Assembly (NCBI GenBank): GCA_964646415.1
Contig: CAZYEL010000005.1
Location: forward strand, 18,601 to 67,053
Source: an uncultured Candidatus Saccharibacteria bacterium
GTDB taxonomy: Bacteria > Patescibacteriota > Minisyncoccia > UBA6257 > 2-01-FULL-56-20
Reading direction: 5' to 3'
DNA: 48,453 nt
Shown: positions 483-33,891 of the stretch, one piece after another
Layout: each line of letters opens with the position of its first letter
Position numbering within the stretch: position 1 is the stretch's first letter
The notes under the pieces: model-generated
The model's database searches: none
What the model was told of the DNA's origin: nothing
What the model saw: the letters and a program-made list of their open reading frames with translations, nothing else
Translations under genes and position numbers: made by a program

Positions 483-1874
483 TTATATTGAGGAAGCAGC
501 CTCGGTGTTTTTCCCCGGGAAGAGGAGCCTCCCTCCGATATACAGGGATGCAAAAAGATATGAGGCGGTGAGCGGAGAAAGCGGGGTGGGAATCACCATA
601 AGGAACACCGAGAGGAGTATGATGGTGAAACTTGGCAAGAAGAGCGTGAGGAGGGGCAATATCCATAGGAAGTACCACGGCAGCACCCACGGTGTTCCAA
701 AGATGAGAATCGCGAGGAGCGGGAAGGTATAGGCGAGAAGCGGTTTGCTGCGGAAGAGAAACCACGCCATCACGAAAATCCCTATCATAAGACCCATGGT
801 ACGGACGGCGGGCAATTCAAGACCCAGCGTGGTCGCGATTGCCATGGTGGGAAAGAGCGAGGCATCCGTGGTGCCGGGCAGGATGGCGTCGCCTGCGGCG
901 GCGATGCTTGCGGCGATGCCGCCGAACGGGGCGTAGAGAAGCGCGGCAAGCCCGCCTGCGCCAAGCAGTACTCCTCCAAACTGCGCGCATTTCCTGAGCC
1001 ACGGCATATTACTGCGGAAGAGGAGGTAAAAAAGAGGTATGGGAAGAAGGAAAAAGGGCACGTACTTTACGAATCCTCCGAGGAGGAGGATGAGCGCGCT
1101 TGCCGCGTACTTTTCCCGCTTGAAGAAGAGGTAGCTGAAGAGGATGGAAGGAACGACCAAAAAATCGTTGTGCGCGTCCATGAGGAGCAGTTGGAGCATG
1201 GCGGGGTTCCATGCGAGGAGAAGCATAACGGTGTTTCTCTCCCCATCGTTCATGCGGTGGAGCGCCATGATGCGCCAGAGCGCGTATCCCGAGAGGAGGA
1301 GGGAAGCGAGGGCGGCGAGTTTTACCAGGAAGACCGAGGCGGCAAAGGATTGTCCCACATATACCGCTCCCGTGATGAGATAGGTCCACAGGGGTCCGTA
1401 CATCATAGGGAGGTGCGTCCAAGTGAGGTAGGGTGCGAACCACGGGTCGCCCCGGAGCATGTCGGGAGTGGTGAAGTAAGGATTCAAGTGGTGCACCACC
1501 GAACCTTTCGCGAGCAGCATATTCCAGTAGACGTCCTGCGATTTCGTGGGATGCGTCACGACTGCAATCGCGGCGAACACAAAAAAGAAAGCGATGACGA
1601 GCTTGAGGAAAAGCCGGTGAGGAATTTGCCCGGTTCTTTTAAGCAGAATTCCATACCAGAGCAAAAACGACGCGAAGATTGAGGGAAAAAGAAAGTGTGC
1701 GAGGTACCCTGCCCACTCGATTTTTTCCGGCGAGAGTGCGCCGCCGGCTTCCTGAAAATCCATGGGATTCAGGAGGAATCTTTGTGCAAGGAGCGCAGCC
1801 GCGAGCGCAACGCCGGTTCCCACAAGCAGGAACAGTTGCCGCCGCGTTTTGCTTCCCTCGCTTGCCTCGTGCAT
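483..1874 (-). CDS. GT-C membrane glycosyltransferase, MptA/MptB-like polyprenol-phosphomannose-dependent mannosyltransferase
   Basis: Multi-pass hydrophobic protein with SQDVYW...NPY...DPW...MYGPLW and AHND motifs typical of the MptB group; adjacent to a PPM synthase. Confidence 0.7.
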   Translation of the reverse strand: MHEASEGSKTRRQLFLLVGTGVALAAALLAQRFLLNPMDFQEAGGALSPEKIEWAGYLAHFLFPSIFASFLLWYGILLKRTGQIPHRLFLKLVIAFFFVFAAIAVVTHPTKSQDVYWNMLLAKGSVVHHLNPYFTTPDMLRGDPWFAPYLTWTHLPMMYGPLWTYLITGAVYVGQSFAASVFLVKLAALASLLLSGYALWRIMALHRMNDGERNTVMLLLAWNPAMLQLLLMDAHNDFLVVPSILFSYLFFKREKYAASALILLLGGFVKYVPFFLLPIPLFYLLFRSNMPWLRKCAQFGGVLLGAGGLAALLYAPFGGIAASIAAAGDAILPGTTDASLFPTMAIATTLGLELPAVRTMGLMIGIFVMAWFLFRSKPLLAYTFPLLAILIFGTPWVLPWYFLWILPLLTLFLPSFTIILLSVFLMVIPTPLSPLTASYLFASLYIGGRLLFPGKNTEAASSI

Positions 1875-8411: not shown

Positions 8412-8448
8412 AAGGTTAAACCTTAAGAATTCCCCAAGGTTCAACCTT
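8412..8448. promoter_or_regulatory. Double palindrome AAGGTTNAACCTT (copy A), upstream of paralog 1
   Basis: AAGGTTAAACCTT 8412-8424 and AAGGTTCAACCTT 8436-8448; ATG at 8459. Function inferred only. Confidence 0.6.
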
Positions 8449-8458
8449 GAAGAATCCA

Positions 8459-10237
8459 ATGAATTCCGAAACCAAGGTTTGTCAAAACTGCAACAATAAT
8501 TTCACAATCGAATCGGCTGATCGTGAGTTTTACAAGAAAGTGCAGGTGCCTCCGCCCACGTTTTGCCCGGAGTGCAGGTTCACGCGCCGCTTGATTTTAA
8601 GAAATGAGCGCGGCCTTTATAAGAGAAAATGCGATCTTTGCGGGGAGGAGAAGATAGTATCGTTTCCATTCCAAAGCCCGTTTAAAGTTTATTGCAAAGA
8701 ATGTTGGTGGAGCGACAAGTGGGATGCGGGAATATATGGCCGCGAGTATGATTTTTCTAAACCGTTTTTCGAACAGTTTTTTGATTTGGTTAAAGCGGTT
8801 CCTCGTCCGGGGATCGTTCATCAAGGGATGATTGTAGATAGCCCATATACCAACCGAGCGAGCAATCTCAAGAATTGCTATTTGCTTTATGCGAGTAACT
8901 TTGACGAGAATTGTTCTTACGGCGCGTGGTTCAACGATTCGAAAGATTCGATGGACGGTCTGGCGGTTCAAAAATCGGAGCAATGCTATGAGTGCATAGA
9001 TTGCGTTGAGTGCAGCCGGTTATTATATTCGCAGGAATGTATCGCGTGCAGTAACTCGTATTTTTTGCTGAATTGCCGCAATTGCGAGAGCTGTTTCGGA
9101 TGCGTCAATCTGCGGAATAAAAGCTACTGCATATACAACAAGCAGTATTCGAAAGAGGATTACAAACGGGTGCTCGCGCAGTTTAATCTAGGCAGTCGGA
9201 TGATGCGGGACGCCCTCGCCTTACAATTCGGAGCGCAAAAAGGAAAATATATTTTTCCGTCTTTGATTTCGCGGCACAGTCAGAACGTTTCCGGTAATTG
9301 GATCGAAGAATCCAAAAATGTATTCAGGGGGTTTTCCTGCCGGAAGGTGGAAGATGCGAGATATTCTTCCATGCTTGTCGAATCGAAAGACGTGATGGAT
9401 TACTCGTTCTGGGGCCGCGCGACCGAGCTTATTTATGAATCTGTGAATATAGGGTATCAATCTTCGAATATCCGTTTCAGCACAGAAATTTGGGATAATG
9501 CCGCAGACATAACTTATTCTTTTAATTGCCACAGTTCCCATGATCTTTTTGGGTGTGTCGGATTAAGGAAAAAGGATTATTGCATTTTAAACAAGCAGTA
9601 TTCAAAAGAAGACTTTGAGGCAATCTCCAAAAAAATAATCGAACAGATGAAGACGATGCCGTATATCGATGGCAAGGGCAGGAAATATTCGTACGGAGAG
9701 TTTTTCCCCGCGGACTTGCATCTTTTTGCGTACAATGAGACGACCGCGCATGAATATTTTCCGCTGACAAAAGAAGATGCTCTGCGGCAGGGATATGCAT
9801 GGAAGGATGGAGAGGGCCGCAATTATAAAATAACGCTTCCGGCGGATCAAATTCCTGACGGTATAAAAGAGGTGTCCGGTGACATTCTGAAAGAGATTGT
9901 GGGGTGTGCGCACGCCGGAAATTGCAATCACCAGTGCACTACCGCGTTTCGCGTCACTTCGGAGGAGCTTCAATTTTATAAGACTTTCGGAATACCTATC
10001 CCGCAGTTTTGTCCGAATTGTCGGTATTATGAACGCGTGAGCAAAAGGAACCCCTTGAAATTATGGGCAAGAAAATGCGAGTGCGGCGGGGATCGCGCTA
10101 TGCGGGGCGCTTATAAAAATAACTCCGCGCATTCCCACGGAACAGATCCTTGTGCTGTGGTGTTTGAGACAAGCTACGCCCCCGACCGACCGGAAATCGT
10201 GTATTGCGAGAACTGCTACAATGCCGAGGTCGCATAA
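8459..10237 (+). CDS. Cys-rich multi-zinc-ribbon protein, paralog 1
   Basis: N-terminal CxxC...PPxxCxxCR, W-x-D-x-WD, two CxxCxxC...FGC-x-x-LR-x-K-x-YCI-x-NKQYSKE modules, YGEFFP...AYNET, C-terminal YCxxCY; about 35 Cys by my count. Confidence 0.9.
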   Translation: MNSETKVCQNCNNNFTIESADREFYKKVQVPPPTFCPECRFTRRLILRNERGLYKRKCDLCGEEKIVSFPFQSPFKVYCKECWWSDKWDAGIYGREYDFSKPFFEQFFDLVKAVPRPGIVHQGMIVDSPYTNRASNLKNCYLLYASNFDENCSYGAWFNDSKDSMDGLAVQKSEQCYECIDCVECSRLLYSQECIACSNSYFLLNCRNCESCFGCVNLRNKSYCIYNKQYSKEDYKRVLAQFNLGSRMMRDALALQFGAQKGKYIFPSLISRHSQNVSGNWIEESKNVFRGFSCRKVEDARYSSMLVESKDVMDYSFWGRATELIYESVNIGYQSSNIRFSTEIWDNAADITYSFNCHSSHDLFGCVGLRKKDYCILNKQYSKEDFEAISKKIIEQMKTMPYIDGKGRKYSYGEFFPADLHLFAYNETTAHEYFPLTKEDALRQGYAWKDGEGRNYKITLPADQIPDGIKEVSGDILKEIVGCAHAGNCNHQCTTAFRVTSEELQFYKTFGIPIPQFCPNCRYYERVSKRNPLKLWARKCECGGDRAMRGAYKNNSAHSHGTDPCAVVFETSYAPDRPEIVYCENCYNAEVA

Positions 10238-10244
10238 ACCCACC

Positions 10245-10281
10245 AAGGTTAAACCTTGGGAACCCCTAAAGGTTTAACCTT
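10245..10281. promoter_or_regulatory. Double palindrome AAGGTTNAACCTT (copy B), upstream of paralog 2
   Basis: AAGGTTAAACCTT 10245-10257 and AAGGTTTAACCTT 10269-10281; ATG at 10291. Confidence 0.6.
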
Positions 10282-10290
10282 AACGAATCC

Positions 10291-11985
10291 ATGAATTCCG
10301 AAACAAGAAAATGTAAAAGTTGCAGCTCAGAATTTGTTATCGAACCAGATGACTTCGCGTTCTACGAAGCCGTCCACGTCCCGCCGCCGACGTGGTGCCC
10401 GCAATGCCGACTTGTGCGGCGACTTTCGTGGCAGGGGTACCGGATGCTTTATAAACGGAAGTGTGACTTTACGGGGGAAATGATGCTCACTACGCATCAC
10501 CCTGATGCCCCACACAAAATGTATCGGCAGGATGTGTGGTGGTCGGATAAATGGGACCCCAAGAGCTACGGACGCGATTATGATTTTTCGAAGTCGTTCT
10601 TTGAACAATTCCGGGAGCTTTTCAAAGTAGTGCCGCTCCCGAACTTATATACGGTATATTCAGCGATGACGAACAGCGACTACTGCAATGCTGCCTCCGG
10701 TCTCAAAAATTGCTACTTGTGTTTTCGCATCACTAGTGGTGAAGACAGCGCTTATTTGAACAAGGTCGTGGACGCAAAAAACTCACTCGATTCTTCTTTT
10801 ATAAATCAAGTGGAACTTTGTTATGGCTCGGTTCGCCTCAATAAATGTTATGGGGTTTTCTTCTCGCAGGATTGTGACAATTGCCACAACGTCTGGTTCT
10901 CGAAGGACCTCACGGGATGCTCGGATTGCATCGGATGTATCAATCTCCGAAGCAAGCAGTACTGCATTTTCAATGAACAACATACGAAAGAAGAGTATGA
11001 AAAGTTTCGAGGCGAGCTTGATATTGGTTCGCCGGAGCATCTTGCGGAGTTCAGAGCGAAGGCGGAAGTGTTCTTTGCAAAGCATCCGCGGAGGAATTTC
11101 CATGGGCTGAAAAACACCGATGTTTCCGGCGATTACATTTTTAATTCCAAAAATGTCAAAGACTCATATATGCTCGGGAATGGAGAAAATCTTCGATATT
11201 GTTATCTCTTGAAAAATGGGCCTGCGCGGAATTCCTACGATTGGTCTATTTTCGGTGATAATGGCGAATGGATTTACGATTCCGTATGGGTGGGGCTTAC
11301 CGCATCACACAATAAATTTTCTGCTTGGAACTACGGTTCCCGCGATATTGAGTACTGCTTTGGGTGTATGAATTCGGGAAATCTCTTCGGGTGCGTGGGT
11401 TTGCGAGGCGGAACGGAGTATTGCGTGTTGAACAAGCAACACACGAAGAGCGAGTATGCGGAGCTTGTGACGCGCATCAAAAAGCAGATGCTTGAGGTTC
11501 CATATCGCGACCGGCTCGGGCGCGAATATCGTTATGGAGAAATGTTGCCGGCGGAGATGAGCCCTTGGCTTTATAACGAGTCCACGGCCCATGAATGGTT
11601 CCCGAAAAAGAAAGAAGAGGCGCTCGCCGAGGGTTTCTTGTGGCGCGACCCGGATGTGCGGGAATACCGCGAGGCGACCGTGCAGCTTCCCGAACATATA
11701 AAGGACATTCCCGACAGTATTACGAAGGAAATCCTGAAATGCGGCGCATGCGGAAAAAACTACCAGATTATTCCGATGGAGCTCCAGTTTCTCCGCCGTT
11801 TCGGCTTGCCTGTGCCGCGCGAGTGCCCGCTTTGCCGTGACCGGGCGCGGATACAACAGCTTAATCCGATGGATATCTATAACCGTACTTGCGCAAAGTG
11901 TGGCAAGGCTATCCAAACTTCGTATGCCCCTAACCGACTCGAAATTATATACTGTGAACAATGCTATCAGAAAGAAGTTATATAA
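10291..11985 (+). CDS. Cys-rich multi-zinc-ribbon protein, paralog 2
   Basis: Same motif order as paralog 1; ends in a compact CxxC...CxxC ribbon (CAKCGKAIQTSYAPNRLEIIYCEQC). Confidence 0.9.
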   Translation: MNSETRKCKSCSSEFVIEPDDFAFYEAVHVPPPTWCPQCRLVRRLSWQGYRMLYKRKCDFTGEMMLTTHHPDAPHKMYRQDVWWSDKWDPKSYGRDYDFSKSFFEQFRELFKVVPLPNLYTVYSAMTNSDYCNAASGLKNCYLCFRITSGEDSAYLNKVVDAKNSLDSSFINQVELCYGSVRLNKCYGVFFSQDCDNCHNVWFSKDLTGCSDCIGCINLRSKQYCIFNEQHTKEEYEKFRGELDIGSPEHLAEFRAKAEVFFAKHPRRNFHGLKNTDVSGDYIFNSKNVKDSYMLGNGENLRYCYLLKNGPARNSYDWSIFGDNGEWIYDSVWVGLTASHNKFSAWNYGSRDIEYCFGCMNSGNLFGCVGLRGGTEYCVLNKQHTKSEYAELVTRIKKQMLEVPYRDRLGREYRYGEMLPAEMSPWLYNESTAHEWFPKKKEEALAEGFLWRDPDVREYREATVQLPEHIKDIPDSITKEILKCGACGKNYQIIPMELQFLRRFGLPVPRECPLCRDRARIQQLNPMDIYNRTCAKCGKAIQTSYAPNRLEIIYCEQCYQKEVI

Positions 11986-11991
11986 CGACCG

Positions 11992-13746
11992 ATGTTGATT
12001 GAAACAAGAAGTTGCCAGAATTGTAAAAACCAGTTTGTCATCGAGCCGGAAGATTTTGATTTTTACAAAAAGATGTGTGTGCCGCCGCCGACATTCTGTC
12101 CCGACTGCCGGGCTCAACGGCGGATGCTGTGGCGCAACGAACGTACCTACTACAAGAGGCCTTGTAACGCACCCGGGCACAGTGAGGGCGTCATCAGTAT
12201 CATTGCACCCGAATCGCCCTTCGTCATTTTCGATCAACAATATTGGTGGAGTGATAGTTGGGATCCGCTTGATGCTGGTCGCGACCTCGATTTTTCAAAA
12301 CCGTTTTTTAAACAGTATCGCGAGCTTTTGGAACGAGTGCCAATCATAGCGCTTTCGAACACAAACTCGGTGAATAGCGATTACTGCAGTTCTGCAGCAT
12401 GGAACAAAGATTGCTATCTAATTAGCGGCGGAGGGTGGGATGAGCGAGTATCTTATGCAAATCGCGCCGTCAAGGTGAAGGATTCGCTTGATGTCTACAT
12501 CGTCGATAACAGCGAACTTTGTTACGACTGCTCATACTGCACAAAGTGTTACCGACTTCTCATGAGCCGTAACTGTGAGGCATGCAGCGAATCCGCTTTC
12601 CTTTACAATTGCCGAAATTGTTCAAGCTGTTTTGGCTGTGCGAATTTGCGAAGTAAGCAGTATTGCTTCTTCAATGAACAACTGACGAAAGAAGAGTACG
12701 AAAGGCGCGTACGCAGTGCCGACATTGGTAGTTTCCGTGCTTTGCAGGGCGTTGCACGACGGTTTCACAATTGCGTGTATTTGAAAGCTATCCACAAGTA
12801 CGCGGATATTATGAATTGTACCAACGCGACTGGCGACCATATTCGTAACGCGCGGAACTGTCGCGACTGTTTTGATATTGGCGGTGACGACACTGAACAC
12901 TGCCGTTTTGTGAACTGGAGCGGTTTCAAGACGAAGGACCTCTACGATACTGGCCCGGGTGCCGGATGGAACTCCGAAATGCTTTACGAGGGGCTTGACC
13001 TAAACGACTCATCCCGGCTTGTTGGTTGTGTGACGAACTATAACTGTCAGGATATGTGGTACTGCGTTAATTGCCACAATTCGAGCGACTGCTTTGGTTG
13101 TTACGGGCTTCGCAGTAAACAGCACTGTATTCTGAATAAGCAGTATTCGGAGGAGGAGTATAAGGCGCTACTCTCGAGTGCCAAAGAGCATATGGAAAAG
13201 ATGCCTTACATTGATGCACAAGGGAGGAGGTATGGTCTCGGCGAGTTTTTCCCACCGGAGATACAGCCATTCGCGTACAACGAAACAATAGCGCAAGAGT
13301 ACTTTCCACTGACAAAAGAAGTGGCAACAAGGCAGGGGCATCGGTGGCGCGAGCAAGACGCCCGTCACTATACGGTTACGCTGCATGCAAGAGACGTTCC
13401 AGACCATATCAAAGACGTTTCCGATGATATTCTAAGAGAAATCATAGAGTGTGAACATGCCGGGGCATGTTTGGAACAATGCACGACAGCGTTCAAAATC
13501 ATCCCTGGAGAATTGCAGCTCTATCGGCGACTAGGCATTCCATTACCCCATCTTTGTCCAAACTGTCGGCACTACCAACGCCTTGCACAGCGCAACTCTT
13601 TGAAACTTTGGCACCGTCAATGCATGTGTAATAAAAGCCATCGAGAACACTCCGGGCAGTGCCTAAACGAGTTTGAGACGAGTTATGCACCGGAGCGTCC
13701 GGAAATCGTTTATTGCGAGCAGTGTTACCAACAGGAAATTTCATAA
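11992..13746 (+). CDS. Cys-rich multi-zinc-ribbon protein, paralog 3
   Basis: Same architecture; 6-bp gap from paralog 2. Confidence 0.9.
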   Translation: MLIETRSCQNCKNQFVIEPEDFDFYKKMCVPPPTFCPDCRAQRRMLWRNERTYYKRPCNAPGHSEGVISIIAPESPFVIFDQQYWWSDSWDPLDAGRDLDFSKPFFKQYRELLERVPIIALSNTNSVNSDYCSSAAWNKDCYLISGGGWDERVSYANRAVKVKDSLDVYIVDNSELCYDCSYCTKCYRLLMSRNCEACSESAFLYNCRNCSSCFGCANLRSKQYCFFNEQLTKEEYERRVRSADIGSFRALQGVARRFHNCVYLKAIHKYADIMNCTNATGDHIRNARNCRDCFDIGGDDTEHCRFVNWSGFKTKDLYDTGPGAGWNSEMLYEGLDLNDSSRLVGCVTNYNCQDMWYCVNCHNSSDCFGCYGLRSKQHCILNKQYSEEEYKALLSSAKEHMEKMPYIDAQGRRYGLGEFFPPEIQPFAYNETIAQEYFPLTKEVATRQGHRWREQDARHYTVTLHARDVPDHIKDVSDDILREIIECEHAGACLEQCTTAFKIIPGELQLYRRLGIPLPHLCPNCRHYQRLAQRNSLKLWHRQCMCNKSHREHSGQCLNEFETSYAPERPEIVYCEQCYQQEIS

Positions 13747-13772: not shown

Positions 13773-13792
13773 CCTGCCTACCGGCAGGCAGG
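13773..13792. repeat. 20-bp REP-like imperfect palindrome CCTGCCTACCGGCAGGCAGG
   Basis: Its exact reverse complement occurs at 33331-33350. Confidence 0.9.
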
Positions 13793-15679: not shown

Positions 15680-16105
15680 TTACAGCGCCGTAAAGACTTT
15701 CTTGAATCCCTGACGCTTCAATCTTGGTATGATGTCATCGTTGAGATCCTTGAGTGCAGAGCTGATCGCTTTCCCGTAGTTTTCTGAATCAGGATCGTTT
15801 CCCGCCTCAAAGACCTCCTCTCCGTCAATCTCGCGCGTACAGTAAATGTGCGGAGTGCAGATGCCTTTCTTCAGGTCGAAGGCAATCAAGGTGACTTCGC
15901 AATCGTCAACGTTCCCATCCTCGCTTTTATCCGCGAAGACCGGAAGGCAAATTACATGCCCAACCATCGGGAGGGTGGGAATAGAGATATTAGTTTTGAA
16001 GAACCCCGTGACGCTTCTGGAGCATGACGGACTATCGGCGGAAGGGAATCTCGCCTCGTATGTAAGGGACAGTATAGCTTTCATAATAACTTTCCTTTCT
16101 TTCAT
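15680..16105 (-). CDS. Hypothetical protein under a SAM-I riboswitch
   Basis: 141-aa ORF with GAAAGG shortly upstream of ATG; no motif recognised. Confidence 0.7.
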   Translation of the reverse strand: MKERKVIMKAILSLTYEARFPSADSPSCSRSVTGFFKTNISIPTLPMVGHVICLPVFADKSEDGNVDDCEVTLIAFDLKKGICTPHIYCTREIDGEEVFEAGNDPDSENYGKAISSALKDLNDDIIPRLKRQGFKKVFTAL

Positions 16106-21621: not shown

Positions 21622-21658
21622 AGGTTGAACCTTAAAGAGTCCCTAAAGGTTCAACCTT
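21621..21658. promoter_or_regulatory. Double palindrome AAGGTTNAACCTT (copy C), upstream of paralog 4
   Basis: AAGGTTGAACCTT 21621-21633 and AAGGTTCAACCTT 21646-21658; ATG at 21669. Confidence 0.6.
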
Positions 21659-21668
21659 GAGCGAGTGT

Positions 21669-23471
21669 ATGAATTCCGAAACCAAAACCTGCCAGAGTTG
21701 TAAAGCGCAATTTACGGTTGCGCCGGATGACTTCGCGTTCTATGAAAAACTGAAAGTCCCGCCGCCCACATGGTGTCCGGAATGCCGGATGGTGCGGCGG
21801 TTAGTGTGGAGAAATGAGCGTTGTCTATACAAACGGAAGTGCGACCTATGTAGCGTCGCCGTTTTTTCCGCATTCGCACCCCGAGCCCCTTATACGGTTT
21901 ATTGTGTGGAGTGTTATGCATCGGACAAATGGGATGCCGCGCAGCATGCCCGACCCTACGATTGGAATAAAAGTTTCTTCGAGCAATGGCACGCTCTTTT
22001 TGCCGATGTTCCCCAGCGGAACTTGTACGTTACCAACTCTACCAATTCTCCCTATGGCGGAAACATGTTGCGCGATTCTACTCGTATCTATCTTTCCTAT
22101 TCTCTCTTAAGCTCGGAAGACGTGTTTTACTCGAAAGATATTGATAAATCCCGCTCGGTTTTTGACAGCTTTGATTTGGTGGAGTCAGAGAATGTGTTCC
22201 AAGGGGTGCTTGGGTATAAGAACTATAACTGCGATTTTATCTATTTTTCTCGCAGCTGCATGGATTCTCGGTATCTCTATGATTGCGTGAATTGCCGCAA
22301 TTGTTTTATGTGCACGAATCTTCGTAATAAGGAGTTTTGTATTAGAAATAAGCCATACGCGAAAGAGGAATATCAGAAAGAAATCAGCGGAATTGATTTT
22401 GGAAGTTACACAACCTCCTCTGCTCTCTACGGGGAGTTCTTAGAATTAACAAAGAATGCGCTTCATAAGTATGCGACCATTCTCAATTGCTCGCACTGCA
22501 CGGGAAATGACCTTATCAACTCGAAAAATGCGCGCGCATGTTTCAGCAGTCATGACATTGAGAATGTGAAATTCGCATTCCGCATTTTGACGACGCGGGA
22601 CTCTATGGACCTTACCTATCTCGGTTTGAATGCCGAACTTCTGTATGAGTGCCAGGGAACCGGGAGCGCGCACAGCTCATTTGTTCGATTCAACGTTCAT
22701 GGATTCGACGGGCACAACCATGATTTGCAGTACACCGCGAATTGCGGTTTCTCATCACATCTTTTCGGATGTGTCGGAATTCGGAATAAGCAATATTGCA
22801 TTTTAAACAGGCAATATTCAAAGGAAGAATATGAGGTGCTTGTGCCGAAGATTATCGCGCATATGGACGAGATGCCGTATGAATCGCGTGGAGTGAATAG
22901 CGAAGTGCGTATCGTGTATCGGTACGGGGAGTTTTTTCCCGTTGAGTTTTCGCCGTTTGCGTATAATGAAACGCTTGCGCAGGAGTGCTTTTCGCTTACG
23001 AAGGAAGAAGCGGATACACGAGGATACCAATGGAGGGAACCAGAAACGAAACACTACCGTATCACGAAACCCCCCGATGACATTCCCGGTCACATCAAAG
23101 ATGCCGACGATTCAATATGCAGTGAAGTGATAGGATGTGCGCATGGGGGGTTGTGCAAACATCAGTGCGCGACTGCGTTTAAGGTTCTACGCGAGGAACT
23201 TCAGTATTACAAGAAGAGAAATATTCCCTTGCCGCGGCTGTGCCCAAACTGCAGGCATTATGAGCGGCTGGCACAGCGAAATCCGTTGAAGCTGTGGCAT
23301 CGGCGTTGCATGTGCAGCGGGATGAATAGCGTAGAGCGTAGAGCGTATAGCAACACCGTCGCGCACTCCCACGGGAACAGTCCGTGCCCTAACGAATTCG
23401 AAACGCCGTACGCGCCGGAGCGGAAGGAAATCATATATTGTGAGTCGTGTTACAACTCGGAAATCGTGTAG
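21669..23471 (+). CDS. Cys-rich multi-zinc-ribbon protein, paralog 4
   Basis: Starts MNSETKTC like paralogs 1 and 2; same motif order. Confidence 0.9.
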   Translation: MNSETKTCQSCKAQFTVAPDDFAFYEKLKVPPPTWCPECRMVRRLVWRNERCLYKRKCDLCSVAVFSAFAPRAPYTVYCVECYASDKWDAAQHARPYDWNKSFFEQWHALFADVPQRNLYVTNSTNSPYGGNMLRDSTRIYLSYSLLSSEDVFYSKDIDKSRSVFDSFDLVESENVFQGVLGYKNYNCDFIYFSRSCMDSRYLYDCVNCRNCFMCTNLRNKEFCIRNKPYAKEEYQKEISGIDFGSYTTSSALYGEFLELTKNALHKYATILNCSHCTGNDLINSKNARACFSSHDIENVKFAFRILTTRDSMDLTYLGLNAELLYECQGTGSAHSSFVRFNVHGFDGHNHDLQYTANCGFSSHLFGCVGIRNKQYCILNRQYSKEEYEVLVPKIIAHMDEMPYESRGVNSEVRIVYRYGEFFPVEFSPFAYNETLAQECFSLTKEEADTRGYQWREPETKHYRITKPPDDIPGHIKDADDSICSEVIGCAHGGLCKHQCATAFKVLREELQYYKKRNIPLPRLCPNCRHYERLAQRNPLKLWHRRCMCSGMNSVERRAYSNTVAHSHGNSPCPNEFETPYAPERKEIIYCESCYNSEIV

Positions 23472-23505
23472 TTAGAAAATAGCAAGTAGAAATATAGAAA
23501 ATAGA

Positions 23506-25248
23506 ATGAAACCAGAAGTAAGAAAATGCAAAGAATGCGCCGCTCAATTCCCGATTGAAGCGGACGATATTGAGCTTTACGAGAAGTTCAAGGTGCCCGC
23601 GCCGGTGCGGTGCCCGGACTGCCGTCAGCGCCGGAGGTATTCTTGGCGGAACGAGCGTGTGCTCTACCGCCGGAATTGCGACCTCTGCAGGAAAAGCACG
23701 GTAACGATTTATTCGCCGAACAAGCCCTTCAAGGTGTATTGCCCGCCTTGTTTTTGGTCGGATAAATGGACTGGGCTTGATTACGGGCGCGAGTTTGATT
23801 TCAATAAGCCCTTCTTCCCGCAATGGCGGGAGCTGCAGCTTGAAGTACCGCGCATTGCGCTTCTCACCAAGAACAGCGTGAATTCGGAGTATACGAACCA
23901 CTCAAGCAATAACCGGAATTGCTATTTGAGTTTCAGTACATTCGAGTCCGAAAACATTATGCATTCGGCGAATGTGTGGAAGCAATCAAGGGATTGCGTT
24001 GATTGTTACCTCGCAAGCGTGGAGGGTGGCGCGGAATTGTGCTATGAGTGCGTGAATTCCGCGCGGATGTTTAACTGCCAATTCGGCGTGTTGCTTAAGG
24101 ATTGCACGGATTGCTTTTATTCTTACGACCTTCGCAGCTGTTCAAACTGCTGTCTTTCGTGGAATCTCCGGAACAAGCAGTATCACATCTTGAATGTCGG
24201 GCACTCGAAGGAGGAGTATGAGAAGAGATTTGCCGAATTGAATCTTGGGTCTTTTGTGGGGCGCGAGGCTTTGTATGCTCAATTTAAAGAGCTGCTGGAG
24301 AAGCGGGCCCTCCACAAATTCGCGGTGATTGAAAAATGCGTGAACGTGTCGGGGAATATGCTTTTCAACTCGAAAAATACGCGCCATTCGTTCGACGTGG
24401 ATAAAACGGAAGACACCAAATACGGGATTATCACGCCCGATGTGAAGAATTCTATGGATTCATATCATTATGGATTTGCCTGCGAGCTGATTTACGAGTC
24501 GCACGCGCTGATCCACGACTACGATGTGAAGTTTACGCACTTAAGTTACGACAACTCCCATTTGGAATACTGCGATTCGTGCCATAACTCCGAGAATCTT
24601 TTCGGTTGCGTGGGCATAAAGCAAGGGAAGTATGCAATTTTCAACAAACGGTACGAGGAGAGTGAATACGCGGCGCTCAAGAACCGCATTATCGCGCACA
24701 TGAAAGAGACGGGGGAATACGGTGAATTTTTTCCGCCGGAGCTGTCGCCCTTCGGATACAACGAAACCCAGGGGCAGGTATATATGCCCCTCAAAAAGGA
24801 AGAAGCGGCGGCGAAGGGTTATAAATGGGAAGACCTTACGCCGGGCACGTTCGGCAAGGAAACATTGAAACCCGGAAGCATCCCCGACGACATCAAGGAT
24901 ATCCCTGATACTATTTTGAAAGAAGCGCTTGCATGCGTCTCGTGCACGCGAAATTATAACGTGGTACAAGCCGAACTCGATTTCTACCGGCGCGTGCAGG
25001 TCCCCATTCCCAGGGCTTGCCCCGAATGCCGCTATCGCCGGCGGCTTGAGCGGCGTTTGCCGCGGAAGCTTTGGCATAGGCGTTGCAACTGCAACGCGGC
25101 AAATAGCAAAGAGCAAATAGCCCATAGAAACACGGCTCCGCATTTCCACGGCGATGCACCGTGCCCCAATGAATTTGAGACGCCGTATGCGCCGGAGCGG
25201 AAGGAGGTCGTGTACTGCGAGCAGTGTTATCAGGCGGAAGTGGCATAG
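23506..25248 (+). CDS. Cys-rich multi-zinc-ribbon protein, paralog 5
   Basis: Same architecture; preceded by a TAG-initiated heptamer array (23473-23508). Confidence 0.9.
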   Translation: MKPEVRKCKECAAQFPIEADDIELYEKFKVPAPVRCPDCRQRRRYSWRNERVLYRRNCDLCRKSTVTIYSPNKPFKVYCPPCFWSDKWTGLDYGREFDFNKPFFPQWRELQLEVPRIALLTKNSVNSEYTNHSSNNRNCYLSFSTFESENIMHSANVWKQSRDCVDCYLASVEGGAELCYECVNSARMFNCQFGVLLKDCTDCFYSYDLRSCSNCCLSWNLRNKQYHILNVGHSKEEYEKRFAELNLGSFVGREALYAQFKELLEKRALHKFAVIEKCVNVSGNMLFNSKNTRHSFDVDKTEDTKYGIITPDVKNSMDSYHYGFACELIYESHALIHDYDVKFTHLSYDNSHLEYCDSCHNSENLFGCVGIKQGKYAIFNKRYEESEYAALKNRIIAHMKETGEYGEFFPPELSPFGYNETQGQVYMPLKKEEAAAKGYKWEDLTPGTFGKETLKPGSIPDDIKDIPDTILKEALACVSCTRNYNVVQAELDFYRRVQVPIPRACPECRYRRRLERRLPRKLWHRRCNCNAANSKEQIAHRNTAPHFHGDAPCPNEFETPYAPERKEVVYCEQCYQAEVA

Positions 25249-25271
25249 ACACGACTGATGATTCATAGCCA

Positions 25272-27029
25272 ATGACGGAAGTGAGAACGTGCCAAAACTG
25301 CAAACAGGAATTTACGATAGCTCCCGAGGACTTTGATTTTTATAAAAAAGTAAAGGTTCCGCCCCCGACGTTTTGTTGGAAGTGTAGATTTCAGAGGAGA
25401 TTGACCTATAGGAACGAGCGGAATCCGTTTTGGGCGACGAGCGGTAAATCCGGGAAGCGGATACTCTCGATTTTTCCTCCCGAGGCGGGCGTTACGGTCT
25501 ATGATGAAAAGGAGTGGCGGTCGGATGATTGGGACGGGATGGACTACGGCAGGGATTATGATTTCTCGAGGCCGTTTTTCGAGCAAATACATGAATTAGC
25601 AAAAACGGTGCCGCGTTTCGGGCCGCACACGGAGGACAACGTGAATTGCGAGTACCTCGTCAATACCGGCTGGAGCAAAAACTGTTATCTCGTGTGCAAC
25701 ACTTCGTATGCGGAGGATTGCGCGTATGGTAACGCCATGGACTATTGCAAGTCCTCGTTCGATTGTTCGCATGTGACGAAATGCGAACGGTGTTATGGAT
25801 GTTTTTGGACCAGAGAGTCATATCAAACTCATTTTTCCACGCGCTCGATAAGCAATGCCTCAAGTTGGTGTCTCTTTGGTTGCAAAGGCATGACTGACTG
25901 TTTCGGGTGCGTGAATATGATGAACAAGAGCCACTATATCTTTAACCAGCCTTACTCCAGGGAAGAATACGAAGCGAAGATCGGGGCAATGAAGCTTAAT
26001 ACCTGGTCGGGACTCCAAAAAGCAAAGGCGGAGGCGTTTGCCTTCGCGGCAAAGTTTCCCGTGGCATATCTGAACGGAGTTCTGAATGACAACGTGACCG
26101 GGGAATATGTCAGTGAATCAAAGAATGTGCAGTATGGGTATCTGGTGAACGGCGGGAGAGATTTAAAATACGTGCAATACCTCCAAATTCCTGGCGCGGA
26201 GGATTCGCAGGACCTCACCATTTGGGGAGAAAAACACATATTGGGATATGAAAACGCGACCTCCGGCCTTGGAGTCTCAAATTGCCAGTTTTTGGAAGGA
26301 TGCTGGGCGGAGGTTTTTGATTCTCAATATTGTATTGCATGCCGCAACATTTCAAACTGTTTCGGGTGCGTGGGGTTGAAGAAAAAACAATGCTGTATTT
26401 TCAATAAGCAATATTCGAAAGGCGAGTATGAGAAGCTGAAAGCAAAAATAATCGCGCACATGAACGCGATGCCGTTCGTGGATAAAGCGGGAAGAGTATA
26501 TAAATATGGAGAATTTTTCCCTGCGGAGCATGCCCTTTGCGGGTACAACATCTCTCTGGCGAATGAACACTTTCCCTTGACCAAAGAGGAGGCATTGGCA
26601 CAGGGGTATCTGTGGACAGATATGAAATACGGGGATCACAAAGTGACGGTCATGCCGGACAAAATCCCCGATGCCATTGAAGATGTGCCCGACACGTTCA
26701 CGAAGGAAATTTTGGAATGCATGCAATGCAAAAAGGCATTCCGGGTAGTTCCCATGGAACTCGAATTCCTCAAAGCCGTAAAAATTCCGGTTCCGCGCAC
26801 GTGTGGCGACTGCCGACACAGTGAAAGGATTTCCCGGCGAGCGAAGGCGTTTCTCTACCATCAAACATGTGAATGTGCGGGGGCAAAATCCTCAAACGGG
26901 GTCTACGCGAATTTCACGAAGCATATTCATGGTGATGTGCCTTGTCCGGAAGAGTTTGAAACAAGCCATGATAAAAGTCGCCCTGAAATTGTTTATTGCC
27001 TCAAGTGTTTTTGGGCGGAAGTGGGGTAA
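25272..27029 (+). CDS. Cys-rich multi-zinc-ribbon protein, paralog 6 (most divergent)
   Basis: Same architecture, but the second CxxC/CxxC site is replaced (SGKS...YDEKE). Confidence 0.9.
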   Translation: MTEVRTCQNCKQEFTIAPEDFDFYKKVKVPPPTFCWKCRFQRRLTYRNERNPFWATSGKSGKRILSIFPPEAGVTVYDEKEWRSDDWDGMDYGRDYDFSRPFFEQIHELAKTVPRFGPHTEDNVNCEYLVNTGWSKNCYLVCNTSYAEDCAYGNAMDYCKSSFDCSHVTKCERCYGCFWTRESYQTHFSTRSISNASSWCLFGCKGMTDCFGCVNMMNKSHYIFNQPYSREEYEAKIGAMKLNTWSGLQKAKAEAFAFAAKFPVAYLNGVLNDNVTGEYVSESKNVQYGYLVNGGRDLKYVQYLQIPGAEDSQDLTIWGEKHILGYENATSGLGVSNCQFLEGCWAEVFDSQYCIACRNISNCFGCVGLKKKQCCIFNKQYSKGEYEKLKAKIIAHMNAMPFVDKAGRVYKYGEFFPAEHALCGYNISLANEHFPLTKEEALAQGYLWTDMKYGDHKVTVMPDKIPDAIEDVPDTFTKEILECMQCKKAFRVVPMELEFLKAVKIPVPRTCGDCRHSERISRRAKAFLYHQTCECAGAKSSNGVYANFTKHIHGDVPCPEEFETSHDKSRPEIVYCLKCFWAEVG

Positions 27030-27040
27030 AATAAGAAAGT

Positions 27041-28810
27041 ATGAACTTGGAAACTCGAACTTGCCAAAACTGCAAACAATCTTTCACAATCGAGCCAGAG
27101 GATTCCCAATTCTACGAGCGCGTGAACGTCCCGCCGCCGACATTTTGCCCTGATTGCCGACTCCAACGGCGGATGACGTTTCGGAACGAGCGCTCGCTCT
27201 ACAAGCGCACATGCGACCTTTGTAAAAAGCCGTTTGTCTCGATGTATTCACCTGACAAGCCCTTCACGGTGTATTGCAAAGAGTGCTGGTATTCCGATAA
27301 CTGGGACCCGCTTCAGTACGGGCAGGAATACGACTGGAAGAAACCTTTTTTCACGCAATTCCGGGAGTTGATGCATAAAGTGCCGCGCATTGGGATTATG
27401 CATATTCATACGAATATGAATGCCGACTTTGCAAATTATGTTGCAGACAGTAAAAACGTCTATCTCTCGCAATCGGTGATCGCGAAATCCGAAAACGTGT
27501 ATTATTCCCGAAATATTGATACGGGAAAAGATGTATTCGATTGCATGTATGTAAAAGAATCAGAGCGTTGTTATGAAGATTTGGATTGTTTGCACATGTA
27601 CCAAACGCAGTGGTGCGTTCGTTCGCGAGAGTGTCTTGGCTCCGCTTTTCTCTTTGATTGCGTAAGTTGTCAGGATTGTTTTATGAGCGCCAATCTTCGC
27701 AATAAGCGCTATGTGGTGCGCAATCAACAGCTTACGAAGGAAGAATATTCCGTGTTTATAGGGAAGTATAAAAAAGAGGGGTATGAAAGCAGTAAGAAAT
27801 ATCGCGGCGAGTTCCGGGAACTGATGCAACGTGCATTGCATAAATATGGAAATTTGCTCAAGTGCGTGGACTCAACTGGAGATAACCTGGACAATGTCAA
27901 AACAGTGAGAAATTCTTTCGATCTTTATGACGGAGAAAATCTTCGCTTTTGCCTTCGTAATGTAAAAAGCAAGGATTCGTATGATGTGGCTTTTGCAGTG
28001 AGTACTGAGTTGGCGTACGAAGGTATGGCGGCGGGATTTGGAAACTCCAGAGCTTTTTCCGTGGCTCATTGTGATGCGAACGAGAGAGTCTCATATTGTG
28101 ATTGGTGTCAGAGCTCCGCCGACCTTTTTGGATGCGCGGGTCTTCGTAAGAAACAGCATTTTATTTTGAACAAGCAGTATTCGAAAGAGGAATATGAAAA
28201 ATTGAAGGCGCGGATAATTGAGCATATGAACACGCTGCCATATGTCGATAAGACGGGAGGGGTGTATGCGTACGGCGAATTTTTCCCAGCCGAGCTTTCT
28301 CCGTTTGCTTATAATGAAACGCTTGCCGGAGAGTATTTTCCTTTATCGAAAGGTGAAACAGTGGCGCGGGGATATGTATGGCGCGAGTTGGATCCTTCGC
28401 CGCACAAACCCACCATTGTTGCAGGGGAACTTCCGGATGCAATTGCCGATGTTTCAGACGAAATACTCAAGGAAATTATCGAATGTACGGTGTGCAAACG
28501 CGTGTATCGAATACTCGCGCCCGAACTTGCGTTCTTGCGCCGCGAGGGGATTGTTTTGCCGCGCGAGTGCCAGGAATGTCGGCATAAAGACCGATTCGAT
28601 TTGCGGAATCCCTTAAAGCTTTGGCATCGGCGTTGTTGTTGCAGTGGCTTGAAAGGTAAAAATGAAAATGAAAGTGAGAATGAGTATAAGAATACTGCGA
28701 TGCATTTCCACGGGGCGGAGAAGTGTCTAAGTGAGTTCGAGACGAGCTACGCGCCCGAGCGGCCGGAGATGGTGTATTGTGAAAGTTGCTACCAATCAGA
28801 AGTTGTGTGA
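27041..28810 (+). CDS. Cys-rich multi-zinc-ribbon protein, paralog 7
   Basis: Same architecture; NENESENE hexamer expansion near the C-terminus. Confidence 0.9.
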   Translation: MNLETRTCQNCKQSFTIEPEDSQFYERVNVPPPTFCPDCRLQRRMTFRNERSLYKRTCDLCKKPFVSMYSPDKPFTVYCKECWYSDNWDPLQYGQEYDWKKPFFTQFRELMHKVPRIGIMHIHTNMNADFANYVADSKNVYLSQSVIAKSENVYYSRNIDTGKDVFDCMYVKESERCYEDLDCLHMYQTQWCVRSRECLGSAFLFDCVSCQDCFMSANLRNKRYVVRNQQLTKEEYSVFIGKYKKEGYESSKKYRGEFRELMQRALHKYGNLLKCVDSTGDNLDNVKTVRNSFDLYDGENLRFCLRNVKSKDSYDVAFAVSTELAYEGMAAGFGNSRAFSVAHCDANERVSYCDWCQSSADLFGCAGLRKKQHFILNKQYSKEEYEKLKARIIEHMNTLPYVDKTGGVYAYGEFFPAELSPFAYNETLAGEYFPLSKGETVARGYVWRELDPSPHKPTIVAGELPDAIADVSDEILKEIIECTVCKRVYRILAPELAFLRREGIVLPRECQECRHKDRFDLRNPLKLWHRRCCCSGLKGKNENESENEYKNTAMHFHGAEKCLSEFETSYAPERPEMVYCESCYQSEVV

Positions 28811-29600: not shown

Positions 29601-29606
29601 TCCTTC

Positions 29607-29976
29607 GGCAGTTCGTAAGCCGGATTCTGTCTGCTCCGGTTTTCGCCGGAGGAGTGGTAATTTGTCTGGGCCTTTGATTGCTCGCAGGCTCTGGCGACTC
29701 AAACCAATGCTTGCGCATTGGAGTACGGTCTTGCATCCGGTAAGGATTTTGCCGTTTCACTTCCGCCTTGTTATCCCTATAGCGGAATTAAACCAATCTA
29801 GCTTGGGATGGGGTTTCCCCTCGGGTTTCCCCTCGGGACGTCACTGCTCGCACCTCTATGCTTTCGCACGGCGGTCGTTAGCCGCTACCTTTTTAACTGT
29901 TCGCCTTTCGGCGAACGTGTGAATGTCCGGACTTTCCTCTCCGACTGATAACATCGGAGCTACCACATGAACTGCC
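29607..29976 (-). ncRNA. rnpB: RNase P RNA
   Basis: Minus strand has GAGGAAAGTCCGGAC near the 5' end and ACAGAATCCGGCTTAC near the 3' end; P1 is GGCAGTTC/GAACTGCC. Confidence 0.95.
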
Positions 29977-29982
29977 AATTTA

Positions 29983-31971: not shown

Positions 31972-33045
31972 ATGAAGAATATTCACTTTCCGTTGTTCAA
32001 AACGAAAATCGAAAAGCTTCGGCATCGGTTCGATTTGAGCGACCCGAAGGAGCGGAAAAAGTATTTCCACGCAAAGGCGGGGAAAGAAATTGTAAAGCTG
32101 CGGAAGTACCTCAAGAAGAACACGTTTGTGGGGTATCTCCTCGGCAAAAAGAATTCGGGGAAGGGGACGTATTCGAAGCTTTTTATGGAGGCAATCGGCG
32201 AGGAGCATGTCCAGCATATTTCCGTGGGGGACGTGGTGCGGGATATGTTTGCGGCGCTTTCGTCGAAGAAGCGGAAAAAAGAGCTTGTGGATTTCCTCGA
32301 TCGCAATTACCGCGGGTTCCATTCCATTGAGGAGACGGTGAAGCTCATTGCGAACAAAAATCAGTCGACGCTTATTCCCTCGGAGCTAATCCTCGCGCTT
32401 ATCAAATTCGAAATCAGCAAGCGCCCGAAGAAAGCGCTTTTTATCGACGGATTCCCGCGCGCGCTCGACCAGATTACGCACTCGCTCTTTTTGAAAGAGA
32501 TTATCGGTTACCGCGAGGACCCGGACTTTTTCATTTTCATTGAAGTGCCGGAGGCGGTTATTGATGAGCGTATGAAGTCGCGCGTGGTGTGTCCCATTTG
32601 CAAGACGCCGCGCGGACTGAAGCTTCTCACGACGAAGCGCGTGGGGTACGACGAAGACATGAAGCAGTTTTACCTTATCTGCGACACGCCGTCTTGTGCG
32701 GGCGAGCGGATGGTGGCGAAAGAGGGGGACGAGCTCGGTATCGAACCCATCCGGCAGCGACTCGAACTCGACGACCAGATTTTTCGCCGGCTCATGGCAC
32801 TCCGCGGGATTCCCAGGATTTCTCTGCGCAATTCGATTCCGGTAACGCAGGCAAAAAAGTATGTGGATGACTACGAAATCACGCCTGCCTACGATTACCG
32901 GCGCGACCAGCACACCGGCAAGGTGATTACGAGCCAGAAGCCCTGGACGGTCAAGGACGATGACGGGGTGCGTTCTTACAGCTTGCTCCCGGCGGCAATC
33001 GTGGTTGCGCTTATCAAGCAGATTGTGGAGGTGCTGGGGTTGTAG
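31972..33045 (+). CDS. Adenylate-kinase-like nucleoside monophosphate kinase
   Basis: P-loop GKKNSGKGT, HISVGDVVR, IDGFPRALDQ, LID-like RVVCPIC...CDTPSC. Confidence 0.75.
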   Translation: MKNIHFPLFKTKIEKLRHRFDLSDPKERKKYFHAKAGKEIVKLRKYLKKNTFVGYLLGKKNSGKGTYSKLFMEAIGEEHVQHISVGDVVRDMFAALSSKKRKKELVDFLDRNYRGFHSIEETVKLIANKNQSTLIPSELILALIKFEISKRPKKALFIDGFPRALDQITHSLFLKEIIGYREDPDFFIFIEVPEAVIDERMKSRVVCPICKTPRGLKLLTTKRVGYDEDMKQFYLICDTPSCAGERMVAKEGDELGIEPIRQRLELDDQIFRRLMALRGIPRISLRNSIPVTQAKKYVDDYEITPAYDYRRDQHTGKVITSQKPWTVKDDDGVRSYSLLPAAIVVALIKQIVEVLGL

Positions 33046-33080
33046 AGGCGTAGTGGCGCAATAGAAGGGAGAATCTCCCT

Positions 33081-33308
33081 CTACTCTTCGAGATACCCTC
33101 CCGTTTGGTTTTTGTTCGGATATGTGCGGATTGATTCCTCAATCGTATCCATCGCATCCTCAAGCTTCCGGGCGACATTTTCGATGACGCGTCCGCGGTC
33201 AAGCGATCCCGTTTGGAAGTTGCCGAGAAGATTCCATGCCTCGTGGCCGATTTCAAATGAAATTGTGCTAAGGTACTTCGGCATTTCTTCGGGTGAAATG
33301 ATTGCCAT
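33081..33308 (-). CDS. Hypothetical 75-aa protein under a fluoride riboswitch
   Basis: Most plausible ORF between the riboswitch and the convergent kinase; no motif recognised. Confidence 0.55.
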   Translation of the reverse strand: MAIISPEEMPKYLSTISFEIGHEAWNLLGNFQTGSLDRGRVIENVARKLEDAMDTIEESIRTYPNKNQTGGYLEE

Positions 33309-33330
33309 AGGAATAGGTTAAAGGTTTTAG

Positions 33331-33350
33331 CCTGCCTGCCGGTAGGCAGG
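33331..33350. repeat. 20-bp REP-like palindrome CCTGCCTGCCGGTAGGCAGG
   Basis: Reverse complement of 13773-13792; flanked on the minus strand by ctacaac ccacaac ... ctaaaac ctttaac heptamers. Confidence 0.9.
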
Positions 33351-33390
33351 GTTGTGGGTTGTAGATGCAAACACAAACCGACCTTTCAAT

Positions 33391-33420
33391 AAAAATCCTC
33401 TACCCTAAAAGTGGTAGAGG
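33391..33420 (-). terminator. Terminator overlapping the fluoride aptamer 3' strand
   Basis: CCTCTACC-ACTTTTAG-GGTAGAGG then ATTTTTATT. Confidence 0.8.
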
Positions 33421-33467
33421 TCATCAGTCCCGCATGAGCCGGGACGGTTATTGCGAACCTCATCGCC
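33414..33467 (-). promoter_or_regulatory. Fluoride (crcB) riboswitch aptamer
   Basis: Minus strand: GGCGATGAGGTTCGC-AATAACC-GTCCCG-GCTCATG-CGGGAC-TGATGACCTCTAC. P1 GCGA/TCGC, pseudoknot GAGGT/ACCTC, conserved GATG and CTGATG. Confidence 0.9.
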
Positions 33468-33891
33468 TGTCCTTATTATACAATTTCAAATACATTTCCA
33501 CCGGTTCGCGGGTGGTTTGGGTGAGCGGTTCGGGGAGCTTGTCGATTGGAAACCAGCCGAATTCCTTGGTTTTGTCCGGTTCACAGTTTCGAGGTTTGCC
33601 TTTTGTGATGCGCGCGAGGTAGTGGAACGCCACCCAATGTTCTTTTTCTGCGGGGAGAATTTGGTTGGTAAATCCGAGGGATTCAAGGAGTTCGATTTCC
33701 ACTCCGAATTCTTCTTTTACTTCGCGCCGCACGGCGTCCTCCACCGTTTCGCCGTACTCCACGGCGCCGCCGGGTTTGCACCACATGCCAATCTCGTTCC
33801 TGTTTTTGCGCTTGAGGAGAAGGGTCTCGCCGCAGTCGTTCACGATGAGCGCGCCGCACCCCACGCCGATGTAGTCTTTTCCAGGTTCCAT
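33460..33891 (-). CDS. NUDIX hydrolase
   Basis: Nudix box GGAVEYGETVEDAVRREVKEEFG; start at ATG 33891 (alternative GTG 33918). Confidence 0.92.
   Translation of the reverse strand: MEPGKDYIGVGCGALIVNDCGETLLLKRKNRNEIGMWCKPGGAVEYGETVEDAVRREVKEEFGVEIELLESLGFTNQILPAEKEHWVAFHYLARITKGKPRNCEPDKTKEFGWFPIDKLPEPLTQTTREPVEMYLKLYNKDRR

Follow-up and report, generated by a model that had tools for sequence, protein, structure and literature searches.

A fluoride riboswitch in front of a conserved 75-residue protein gene in Candidatus Saccharibacteria: a candidate new member of the fluoride regulon

Which gene does a fluoride riboswitch serve when no fluoride exporter follows it? This question is raised by a stretch of 48,453 nucleotides (nt) from an uncultured Candidatus Saccharibacteria bacterium (assembly GCA_964646415.1, contig CAZYEL010000005.1, positions 18,601 to 67,053), which was analysed as a whole and is called the window in the following. 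On its minus strand, a fluoride riboswitch of the crcB-motif class overlaps the end of a NUDIX hydrolase gene and is followed by an open reading frame (ORF) for a protein of 75 amino acids (aa). We propose that this locus is a fluoride-ON transcriptional riboswitch with one small payload gene, which would encode a new protein of the fluoride regulon, and we put the probability of this reading at about 0.72. The evidence for its regulatory half comes from the sequence, from covariation and from comparison with relatives, and the response to fluoride is predicted.

More than 2500 examples of crcB-motif riboswitches are known from 24 bacterial divisions (PMC5473149), and these switches earlier revealed Fluc and CLC-F as fluoride exporters (PMC7266159). 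The finding reported here matters because the Fluc/CrcB exporter has been described as almost absent from bacteria of the Candidate Phyla Radiation (CPR), where it was detected in one genome, and an alternative system removing such toxic ions was raised as a question (Meheust et al. 2019; PMC6744442).

The aptamer and its expression platform

The elements that carry the proposal lie on the minus strand:

33408..33476, minus: fluoride riboswitch aptamer (crcB motif), RF01734
33467-33464 with 33455-33452, minus: P1 of the aptamer
33445-33441 with 33431-33427, minus: P2 of the aptamer
33461-33457 (GAGGU) with 33421-33417 (ACCUC), minus: pseudoknot of the aptamer
33387..33420, minus: intrinsic terminator (expression platform), from a terminator scan and a minimum free energy (MFE) fold; stem 33420-33413 with 33404-33397, then AUUUUUAUU
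33475..33480, minus: candidate -10 box TATAAT, read from the sequence
33081..33308, minus: gene of the 75-aa protein, predicted to be the sole gene under riboswitch control here

When the window was searched with cmscan against Rfam 15, RF01734 was matched at 33476..33408 (-) with 40.1 bits (gathering score 34, E 9.2e-8). The alignment spans the full-length model (positions 1-64), and the consensus core nucleotides (GCGAUG..GUUCGC, AACCG and CUGAUGAC..CUAC) are all matched; the strand joining P1 and P2 carries a 1-nt deletion relative to the consensus. The window RNA is an ordinary member of RF01734, in which every testable defining feature is present. An earlier interpretation of the DNA letters (hereafter the sequence-only reading) had called it a near-textbook crcB aptamer, and the search bears this out. 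The match is also the sole one at gathering level across the 48-kb window. The sequence-only reading had counted a second canonical riboswitch, but the sole other candidate, a SAM-I element (RF00162, 16161..16265, minus strand), stays below threshold with 41.8 bits (gathering score 44.4, E 3e-6). This element sits upstream of a 141-aa ORF that lacks a Pfam match (15680..16105, minus strand) and is probably the other riboswitch over an orphan gene that had been meant.

Comparison of six aptamers supports the fold. Over 15 base pairs, 95.6% of the cells were paired, compared with 41-52% in controls with slid partners. Compensatory (double) changes were found at 4 pairs. The pseudoknot, with 100% of its cells paired over the six aptamers, accounts for 2 of these (GAGGU:ACCUC versus GAAGCU:AGCUUC). 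Covariation within the population could not be drawn on, since its ten assemblies do not differ over 33040-33960.

The terminator scan yielded the hairpin CCTCTACC-ACTTTTAG-GGTAGAGG at 33420..33397, followed by ATTTTTATT. The MFE fold of 33468..33385 consists of P1, P2 and this hairpin (-30.3 kcal/mol, z -2.95). The 3' strand of the pseudoknot (ACCUC, 33421-33417) had been proposed to double as the 5' arm of the terminator, and the two do have bases 33420-33417 (CCUC) in common, so that the two folds are mutually exclusive. The same competing design can be read at four loci of relatives (L001, L014, L020 and L022; these loci are introduced below), and at a fifth (L012) only a weak stem could be read.

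From these pairings the following course of events is predicted. Transcription would probably start about 7 nt downstream of the TATAAT box embedded in the last codons of the NUDIX gene. When fluoride is lacking, the 3' tail of the aptamer would remain free, and the hairpin at 33420-33397 together with the U-run would terminate transcription; the prfB-NUDIX transcript probably ends at this hairpin as well. Once fluoride has bound in the form of a Mg2+-F- cluster, the pseudoknot GAGGU:ACCUC would be locked, and the locked pseudoknot would sequester the CCUC that the terminator needs, so that RNA polymerase would read through into the 75-aa gene. We favor such an ON switch because the pairings exclude each other in the sequence and because this mechanism is established for the riboswitch class. 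As a speculation, a ribosome halted at the UGA inside the aptamer might mask P1 on transcripts arriving from upstream; fluoride would then be sensed chiefly by transcripts that begin at the internal promoter.

This internal promoter is a candidate. The TATAAT box (33480-33475) lies within Tyr-Asn codons of the NUDIX gene, and its last base is 7 nt upstream of the start of P1. All five related aptamers carry an extended -10 element of the TGnTAnnAT type that starts 16-26 nt upstream of P1. We infer that the switch would have a dedicated promoter at this box.

The small gene and its family

Between the terminator and the next gene, which is convergent and encodes an ADK-like protein, there is only the 75-aa ORF, which is therefore the only possible cargo of the riboswitch. 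In a first protein search, we recovered the window's own protein (from 15 contigs) and one relative, P0002, which is 80% identical and the closest of the family. The contig of P0002 (L001) belongs to an assembly of uncultured Candidatus Saccharibacteria, and its downstream synteny with the window is kept (ADK-like, AspRS, MgtC); its upstream neighbor is a divergent DUF5666 gene instead of NUDIX. RF01734 is matched in L001 at 1754..1852 with 35.4 bits, and this aptamer is intact apart from a 36-nt insertion (1789..1824) between P1 and P2. Gene callers place a spurious 51-aa ORF over it. The terminator is kept in L001 with a compensatory A-U to G-C change (CCTCTGCC/GGCAGAGG), and the small ORF comes next. 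Neither fluc nor CLC-F was found at the position of the small gene in any relative examined.

Differences between the window ORF and that of L001 are distributed over the three codon positions as 14/3/40, and dN/dS is 0.056 (Nei-Gojobori method, with dS saturated). The ORF is free of insertions and deletions (indels), and several occur in the leader. An overlapping 120-aa frame (33376..33014) was rejected, as it is broken in L001. The low dN/dS, the indel-free ORF and the broken alternative frame rule out a chance ORF. Thus, the 75-aa ORF is, as judged from sequence comparison, a conserved coding gene under strong purifying selection. The same evidence speaks against a relic of a lost exporter, with a chance or decaying frame behind a switch that is no longer useful; this alternative could point to the missing exporter behind the switch, the lack of CrcB or CLC domains among the scanned ORFs of the window, the REP-like element inserted in the leader and the missing Shine-Dalgarno sequence, but the purifying selection, ORF homologues down to 34% identity, the conservation of aptamer, terminator and ORF as a unit in L001 with compensatory changes, the same family behind fluoride switches in four more distant loci and the absence of an exporter at this position from all relatives largely refute it and make it extremely improbable.

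The gene had been called an orphan, a label that did not survive the homologue searches. An exhaustive hidden Markov model search over 1.84 billion representatives gave five further small relatives (67-78 aa), and two profile searches of a 5.8-billion set extended the family to about 21 clusters. The members (P0001-P0005, P0008, P0011 and P0014-P0027) measure 67-78 aa, and profile E-values among them range from 1e-22 to 1e-34. Alignment A7 holds 19 sequences with 34-80% identity to the window protein. Besides the initiator Met, L28, R40, E43, N44 and R47 are invariant in A7, and Y12, I56, E58 and S59 are nearly so. The family motif reads M-x-I-[IV]-P..EL..YI....E......L...........R..EN..R...AM.TIEES; the window protein, which served as search query, carries it. 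The contigs of the family are AT-rich and of CPR type. A profile scan of genome contigs gave three loci, all from Candidatus Saccharibacteria, and scans of metagenome contigs gave no further family loci.

About a dozen independent loci of the family are readable. They are given here with the RF01734 result and the order of the genes:

Window: RF01734 40.1 bits; switch, then small protein
L001: RF01734 35.4 bits; switch, then small protein
L012: RF01734 40.5 bits; small protein, dynamin-like GTPase (576 aa), two-transmembrane (2-TM) protein (74 aa), enolase
L014: RF01734 45 bits; inorganic pyrophosphatase, small protein, 2-TM protein (73 aa)
L020: RF01734 47.4 bits; small protein, prenyltransferase-like protein, dynamin-like GTPase, 2-TM protein (70 aa)
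L022: RF01734 36.1 bits; small protein, dynamin-like GTPase (split), 2-TM protein (70 aa)
L016: no aptamer detected; 128-aa protein, dynamin-like GTPase, small protein, MatE
L018/L019 and L023: no aptamer detected; small protein, then 157-aa membrane protein
L024: no aptamer detected; YceI, then small protein
L025: upstream cut; dynamin-like GTPase, 2-TM protein, small protein
L026: upstream cut; MFS, 2-TM protein, enolase, small protein

L025 and L026 were left out of the aptamer count, as their contigs end upstream. In 6 of the 10 evaluable distinct loci, the operon with the family gene begins with an RF01734 match that exceeds the gathering score, and in five of these six the small gene comes directly first after the switch. 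Most genomes carry at most one fluoride aptamer. The family thus appears to be a recurrent member of the fluoride regulon, and in relatives its gene would be co-transcribed with enolase, pyrophosphatase, the dynamin-like GTPase and the 2-TM protein. Together with the purifying selection, its position behind fluoride switches in relatives supports the idea of a new fluoride-response protein, which the sequence-only reading had offered next to that of a relic. On the plus strand of L020 we observed a further fragment at 1632..1685, which starts like an aptamer (GGCGATGAAGCTCGC) but departs from it further on; its end, AAGGTCGCC, could pair with the GGCGA at its own 5' end. It obtains no Rfam score and could be a decayed aptamer copy or a variant element.

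Two of the partners in the relatives deserve description. The GTPase of L012, L016, L020 and L022 matches Dynamin_N (E 2e-30), the PDB chains 2J68 (E 3e-22) and IniA 6J72 (E 3e-12), and LeoA-like entries of PADLOC; on these sequence matches it is classed as a true bacterial dynamin-like protein (BDLP/IniA type). The 2-TM protein represents a second conserved unannotated family of 70-74 aa with the motif IG[GV][VT]FGF...L..YLI.YNE[YW].HHY.TK[KR]EPRK, of which the loop YNE[YW]xHHYxTK[KR]EPRK is invariant. Its gene start often overlaps the stop of the dynamin-like gene. No similarity of this family to Fluc, any PDB chain or Pfam was found. The genes are located as follows:

Dynamin-like GTPase: L012 4252..5982; L016 882..2642; L020 4895..6625; L022 4035..5766
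2-TM protein: L012 5979..6203; L014 4233..4454; L020 6622..6834; L022 5763..5975; L025 1339..1551; L026 760..984

Possible roles of the protein and rival explanations

The window protein is hydrophilic (isoelectric point, pI, 4.65; grand average of hydropathy -0.55), and the family as a whole shares this hydrophilic character, with an acidic pI of 4.3-5.0 and hardly any Cys. AlphaFold2 models it as a two-helix hairpin (helices 6-32 and 38-62) with a disordered acidic tail; the mean confidence score (pLDDT) was 84.6 with two sequences and 88.5 with 19. Searches of Pfam, NCBIfam and PADLOC gave nothing significant for the window protein or the 19 family members. As a hydrophilic protein with a predicted soluble hairpin and no Pfam or NCBIfam match, it does not resemble the CrcB or Voltage_CLC exporters, and our best guess is that it is neither an exporter nor an enzyme. 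P0019 carries the name 'PptA/4-OT' (4-oxalocrotonate tautomerase) at the Joint Genome Institute (JGI). This name was rejected: none of the 19 members has a tautomerase match in Pfam, residue 2 is Ala, Ser, Pro or Ile, and the predicted fold is alpha-alpha rather than beta-alpha-beta.

R40, E43, N44 and R47 follow an i, i+3, i+4, i+7 spacing and line up on one face of helix 2 beside a hydrophobic seam of the model, a pattern suggestive of a binding interface. Through this stripe the protein might act as a soluble protein-binding adaptor or accessory of a fluoride-induced membrane or envelope stress module. We advance this role as a guess that is rather unlikely to be correct. The module would comprise the dynamin-like GTPase and the 2-TM protein. 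The idea is weakened by the fact that these partners are missing from the window and that the protein stands alone there and in L001.

The main alternative, which takes several forms, keeps the same regulation but has the protein act directly on fluoride chemistry, either as a small buffer binding the anion or metal-fluoride, or as a protector or regulator of fluoride-sensitive phosphoryl-transfer enzymes such as enolase, pyrophosphatase or GTPases. In its favor are the solitary position of the small gene after the switch both in the window and in L001, its adjacency to the genes of pyrophosphatase (L014) and enolase (L026), the high acidity of the protein, and the i, i+3, i+4, i+7 spacing of the invariant Arg/Glu/Asn/Arg stripe and of an ExxHE stripe present in most members. 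On the other hand, no similarity to known ion-binding folds was found, and the helix-1 stripe E/H/E/N is replaced by K/R/E/K in P0019, P0024, P0021 and P0011, the subfamily most tightly linked to the riboswitch. We also weighed the idea that the ExxHE and RxxENxxR stripes together make up a metal site, but set it aside because helix 1 is not conserved in this subfamily. Direct action on fluoride chemistry is conceivable, though we consider it doubtful.

A further alternative concerns the NUDIX gene. Its ORF ends with AGG CGA TGA, which places the 5' strand of P1 (GGCG, 33467-33464) within the last two sense codons, and the TGA (33462-33460) falls inside the pseudoknot-forming loop; the claim that the first bases of the aptamer are the last codons and the stop of this gene is therefore correct. 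Moreover, the terminator scan gave the riboswitch terminator as the only terminator-like site after NUDIX, and the small ORF is separated from the convergent ADK-like gene by just 35 nt. The switch might thus mainly serve conditional 3'-end formation of the prfB-NUDIX transcript, or protect the ADK-like gene from read-through, with the small ORF as a by-product. In L001, however, there is no NUDIX gene next to the switch and the ORF, which lie in a true intergenic region and have an extended -10 box of their own. Across the loci it is the small-protein family rather than NUDIX that constantly accompanies the aptamer. We regard this explanation as very unlikely. The NUDIX gene is located upstream of the switch and is not under its control. 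Since L001 has no NUDIX gene at this position, the overlap of this gene with the aptamer is incidental.

Several observations weigh against a fluoride-ON switch with the 75-aa gene as its payload. The base of P1 carries a G.A mismatch (G33467/A33452). No -35 box was found, and a consensus promoter scan of this strand was empty. There is no canonical Shine-Dalgarno sequence near the ATG of the window gene or of the family genes with the leader motif described below. The Rfam scan detected no aptamer in 4 of the 10 evaluable loci (L016, L018/19, L023, L024), so that the family is not strictly riboswitch-bound. The small protein is the lone cargo in the window and in L001, and tblastn with the partner proteins of the relatives (dynamin-like, 2-TM, enolase, pyrophosphatase and others) gave no match anywhere in the 48-kb window. 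A profile search against PDB sequences returned designed helical repeats only, which is nothing specific. Foldseek of the AlphaFold2 model against the PDB gave a best E of 0.3 and generic helical hairpins such as the coiled coil of the RNA polymerase beta' subunit and ribosomal L29, which we rejected as uninformative. Finally, no RNA sequencing runs containing the locus were found, and the DNA runs that contain it are groundwater metagenomes.

Surroundings of the locus and comparison with known systems

The surrounding features of the window are the following:

33460..33891, minus: NUDIX hydrolase gene (context), PF00293, E 2e-24
33380..33386, minus: AAAGGTC leader motif, from comparison of the family loci
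33331..33350, no strand assigned: REP-like 20-nt palindrome CCTGCCTACCGGCAGGCAGG, exact second copy at 13773..13792
33066..33080, no strand assigned: 6-bp hairpin AGGGAG-AUU-CUCCCU, read from the sequence, directly 3' of the stop codon of the small gene
31972..33045, convergent to the small ORF: ADK-like gene, from the ORF table and a domain scan

The arrangement downstream of the switch is as the sequence-only reading had described it, with a repetitive extragenic palindrome (REP)-like element, a small ORF and a convergent gene. The palindrome has one further exact copy, which is intergenic, and 0 copies are expected by chance; this suggests a REP-like insertion in the leader. It is absent from the homologous leader of L001. 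AGGTC is found 25-76 nt upstream of the ATG of the family gene in 8 of 12 loci, with or without a riboswitch. The loci with A(A)AGGTC are the window, L001 (about 1957-1963), L012, L016, L020, L022, L025 and L026. The hairpin at 33080-33066, which lies between the small gene and the convergent ADK-like gene, is likely a shared end-of-transcript structure.

Two side observations concern other parts of the window. Bacterial RNase P RNA of class A scores just below its gathering score of 100 both in the window (29601..29978, minus strand, 91.7 bits) and in L001 (5414..5793, minus strand, 88 bits), and these RNAs appear reduced or divergent. Tandem genes for proteins of about 560-600 aa, three at 8447..13746 and four at 21657..28810, are essentially without Pfam matches and may encode paralogous surface or secreted proteins.

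In CPR-type contigs, some of them from Saccharibacteria, the riboswitch marks a compact recurrent gene set that lacks a known exporter and consists of the hairpin protein, the 2-TM mini-protein, the dynamin-like GTPase, enolase and pyrophosphatase. This set offers concrete candidates, ready for cloning, to explain the way in which ultra-small episymbionts deal with fluoride, as well as candidate new members of the fluoride regulon. It is possible, although the odds are against it, that CPR bacteria including Saccharibacteria use a so far undescribed system of fluoride tolerance, made up of the 75-aa hairpin (alone here) and, in relatives, also of the 2-TM protein, a candidate fluoride conduit or membrane sensor, and the dynamin-like GTPase. 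If so, a fluoride-sensitive strain lacking exporters would be rescued when these genes are expressed, and the mechanism would differ from those of Fluc and CLC-F. Should the protein be a dispensable accessory, the locus would still be a clean example of a known switch with an aptamer that overlaps a stop codon. Among the papers searched, 'fluoride riboswitch' never occurs together with 'dynamin' or 'Patescibacteria', nor does any of them contain all three of 'Saccharibacteria', 'fluoride' and 'riboswitch'.

Terminator-type crcB riboswitches have been studied in Bacillus cereus (crcB) and Thermotoga petrophila. The window aptamer has in common with crcB-motif riboswitches that use terminator platforms the architecture of P1, P2 and pseudoknot, the conserved core nucleotides and the mutually exclusive terminator and pseudoknot that would likewise make it an ON switch. 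It differs in that its 5' end overlaps the stop codon of the preceding gene and that it serves neither an exporter nor an enzyme known to be sensitive to fluoride; in L001, the sister copy differs by the 36-nt insertion between P1 and P2. The stop-codon overlap and this insertion are peculiarities of the RNA, and as a system the locus departs from described fluoride regulons in its cargo.

The known fluoride regulon comprises Fluc/CrcB, CLC-F, Na+/H+ antiporters, enolase, pyrophosphatase, HAD phosphatases, formate hydrogen lyase and chorismate mutase, with enolase and pyrophosphatase as classic cargo of fluoride riboswitches (PMC11139923). These two enzymes also occur in the riboswitch-headed operons of the relatives of the 75-aa gene, whereas that review lists no gene class for the 75-aa family, for the 2-TM mini-protein or for the dynamin-like GTPase.

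The GTPase of the relatives, which is not found in the window, resembles the stress-induced dynamin-like proteins, such as Nostoc BDLP (2J68), Mycobacterium IniA (6J72) and those of the LeoA type. No counterpart of the small hairpin and 2-TM partners was found for these systems. Being induced by a chemical stress would be a further similarity to IniA, with the difference that the inducer in the relatives described here would be fluoride, acting via the riboswitch.

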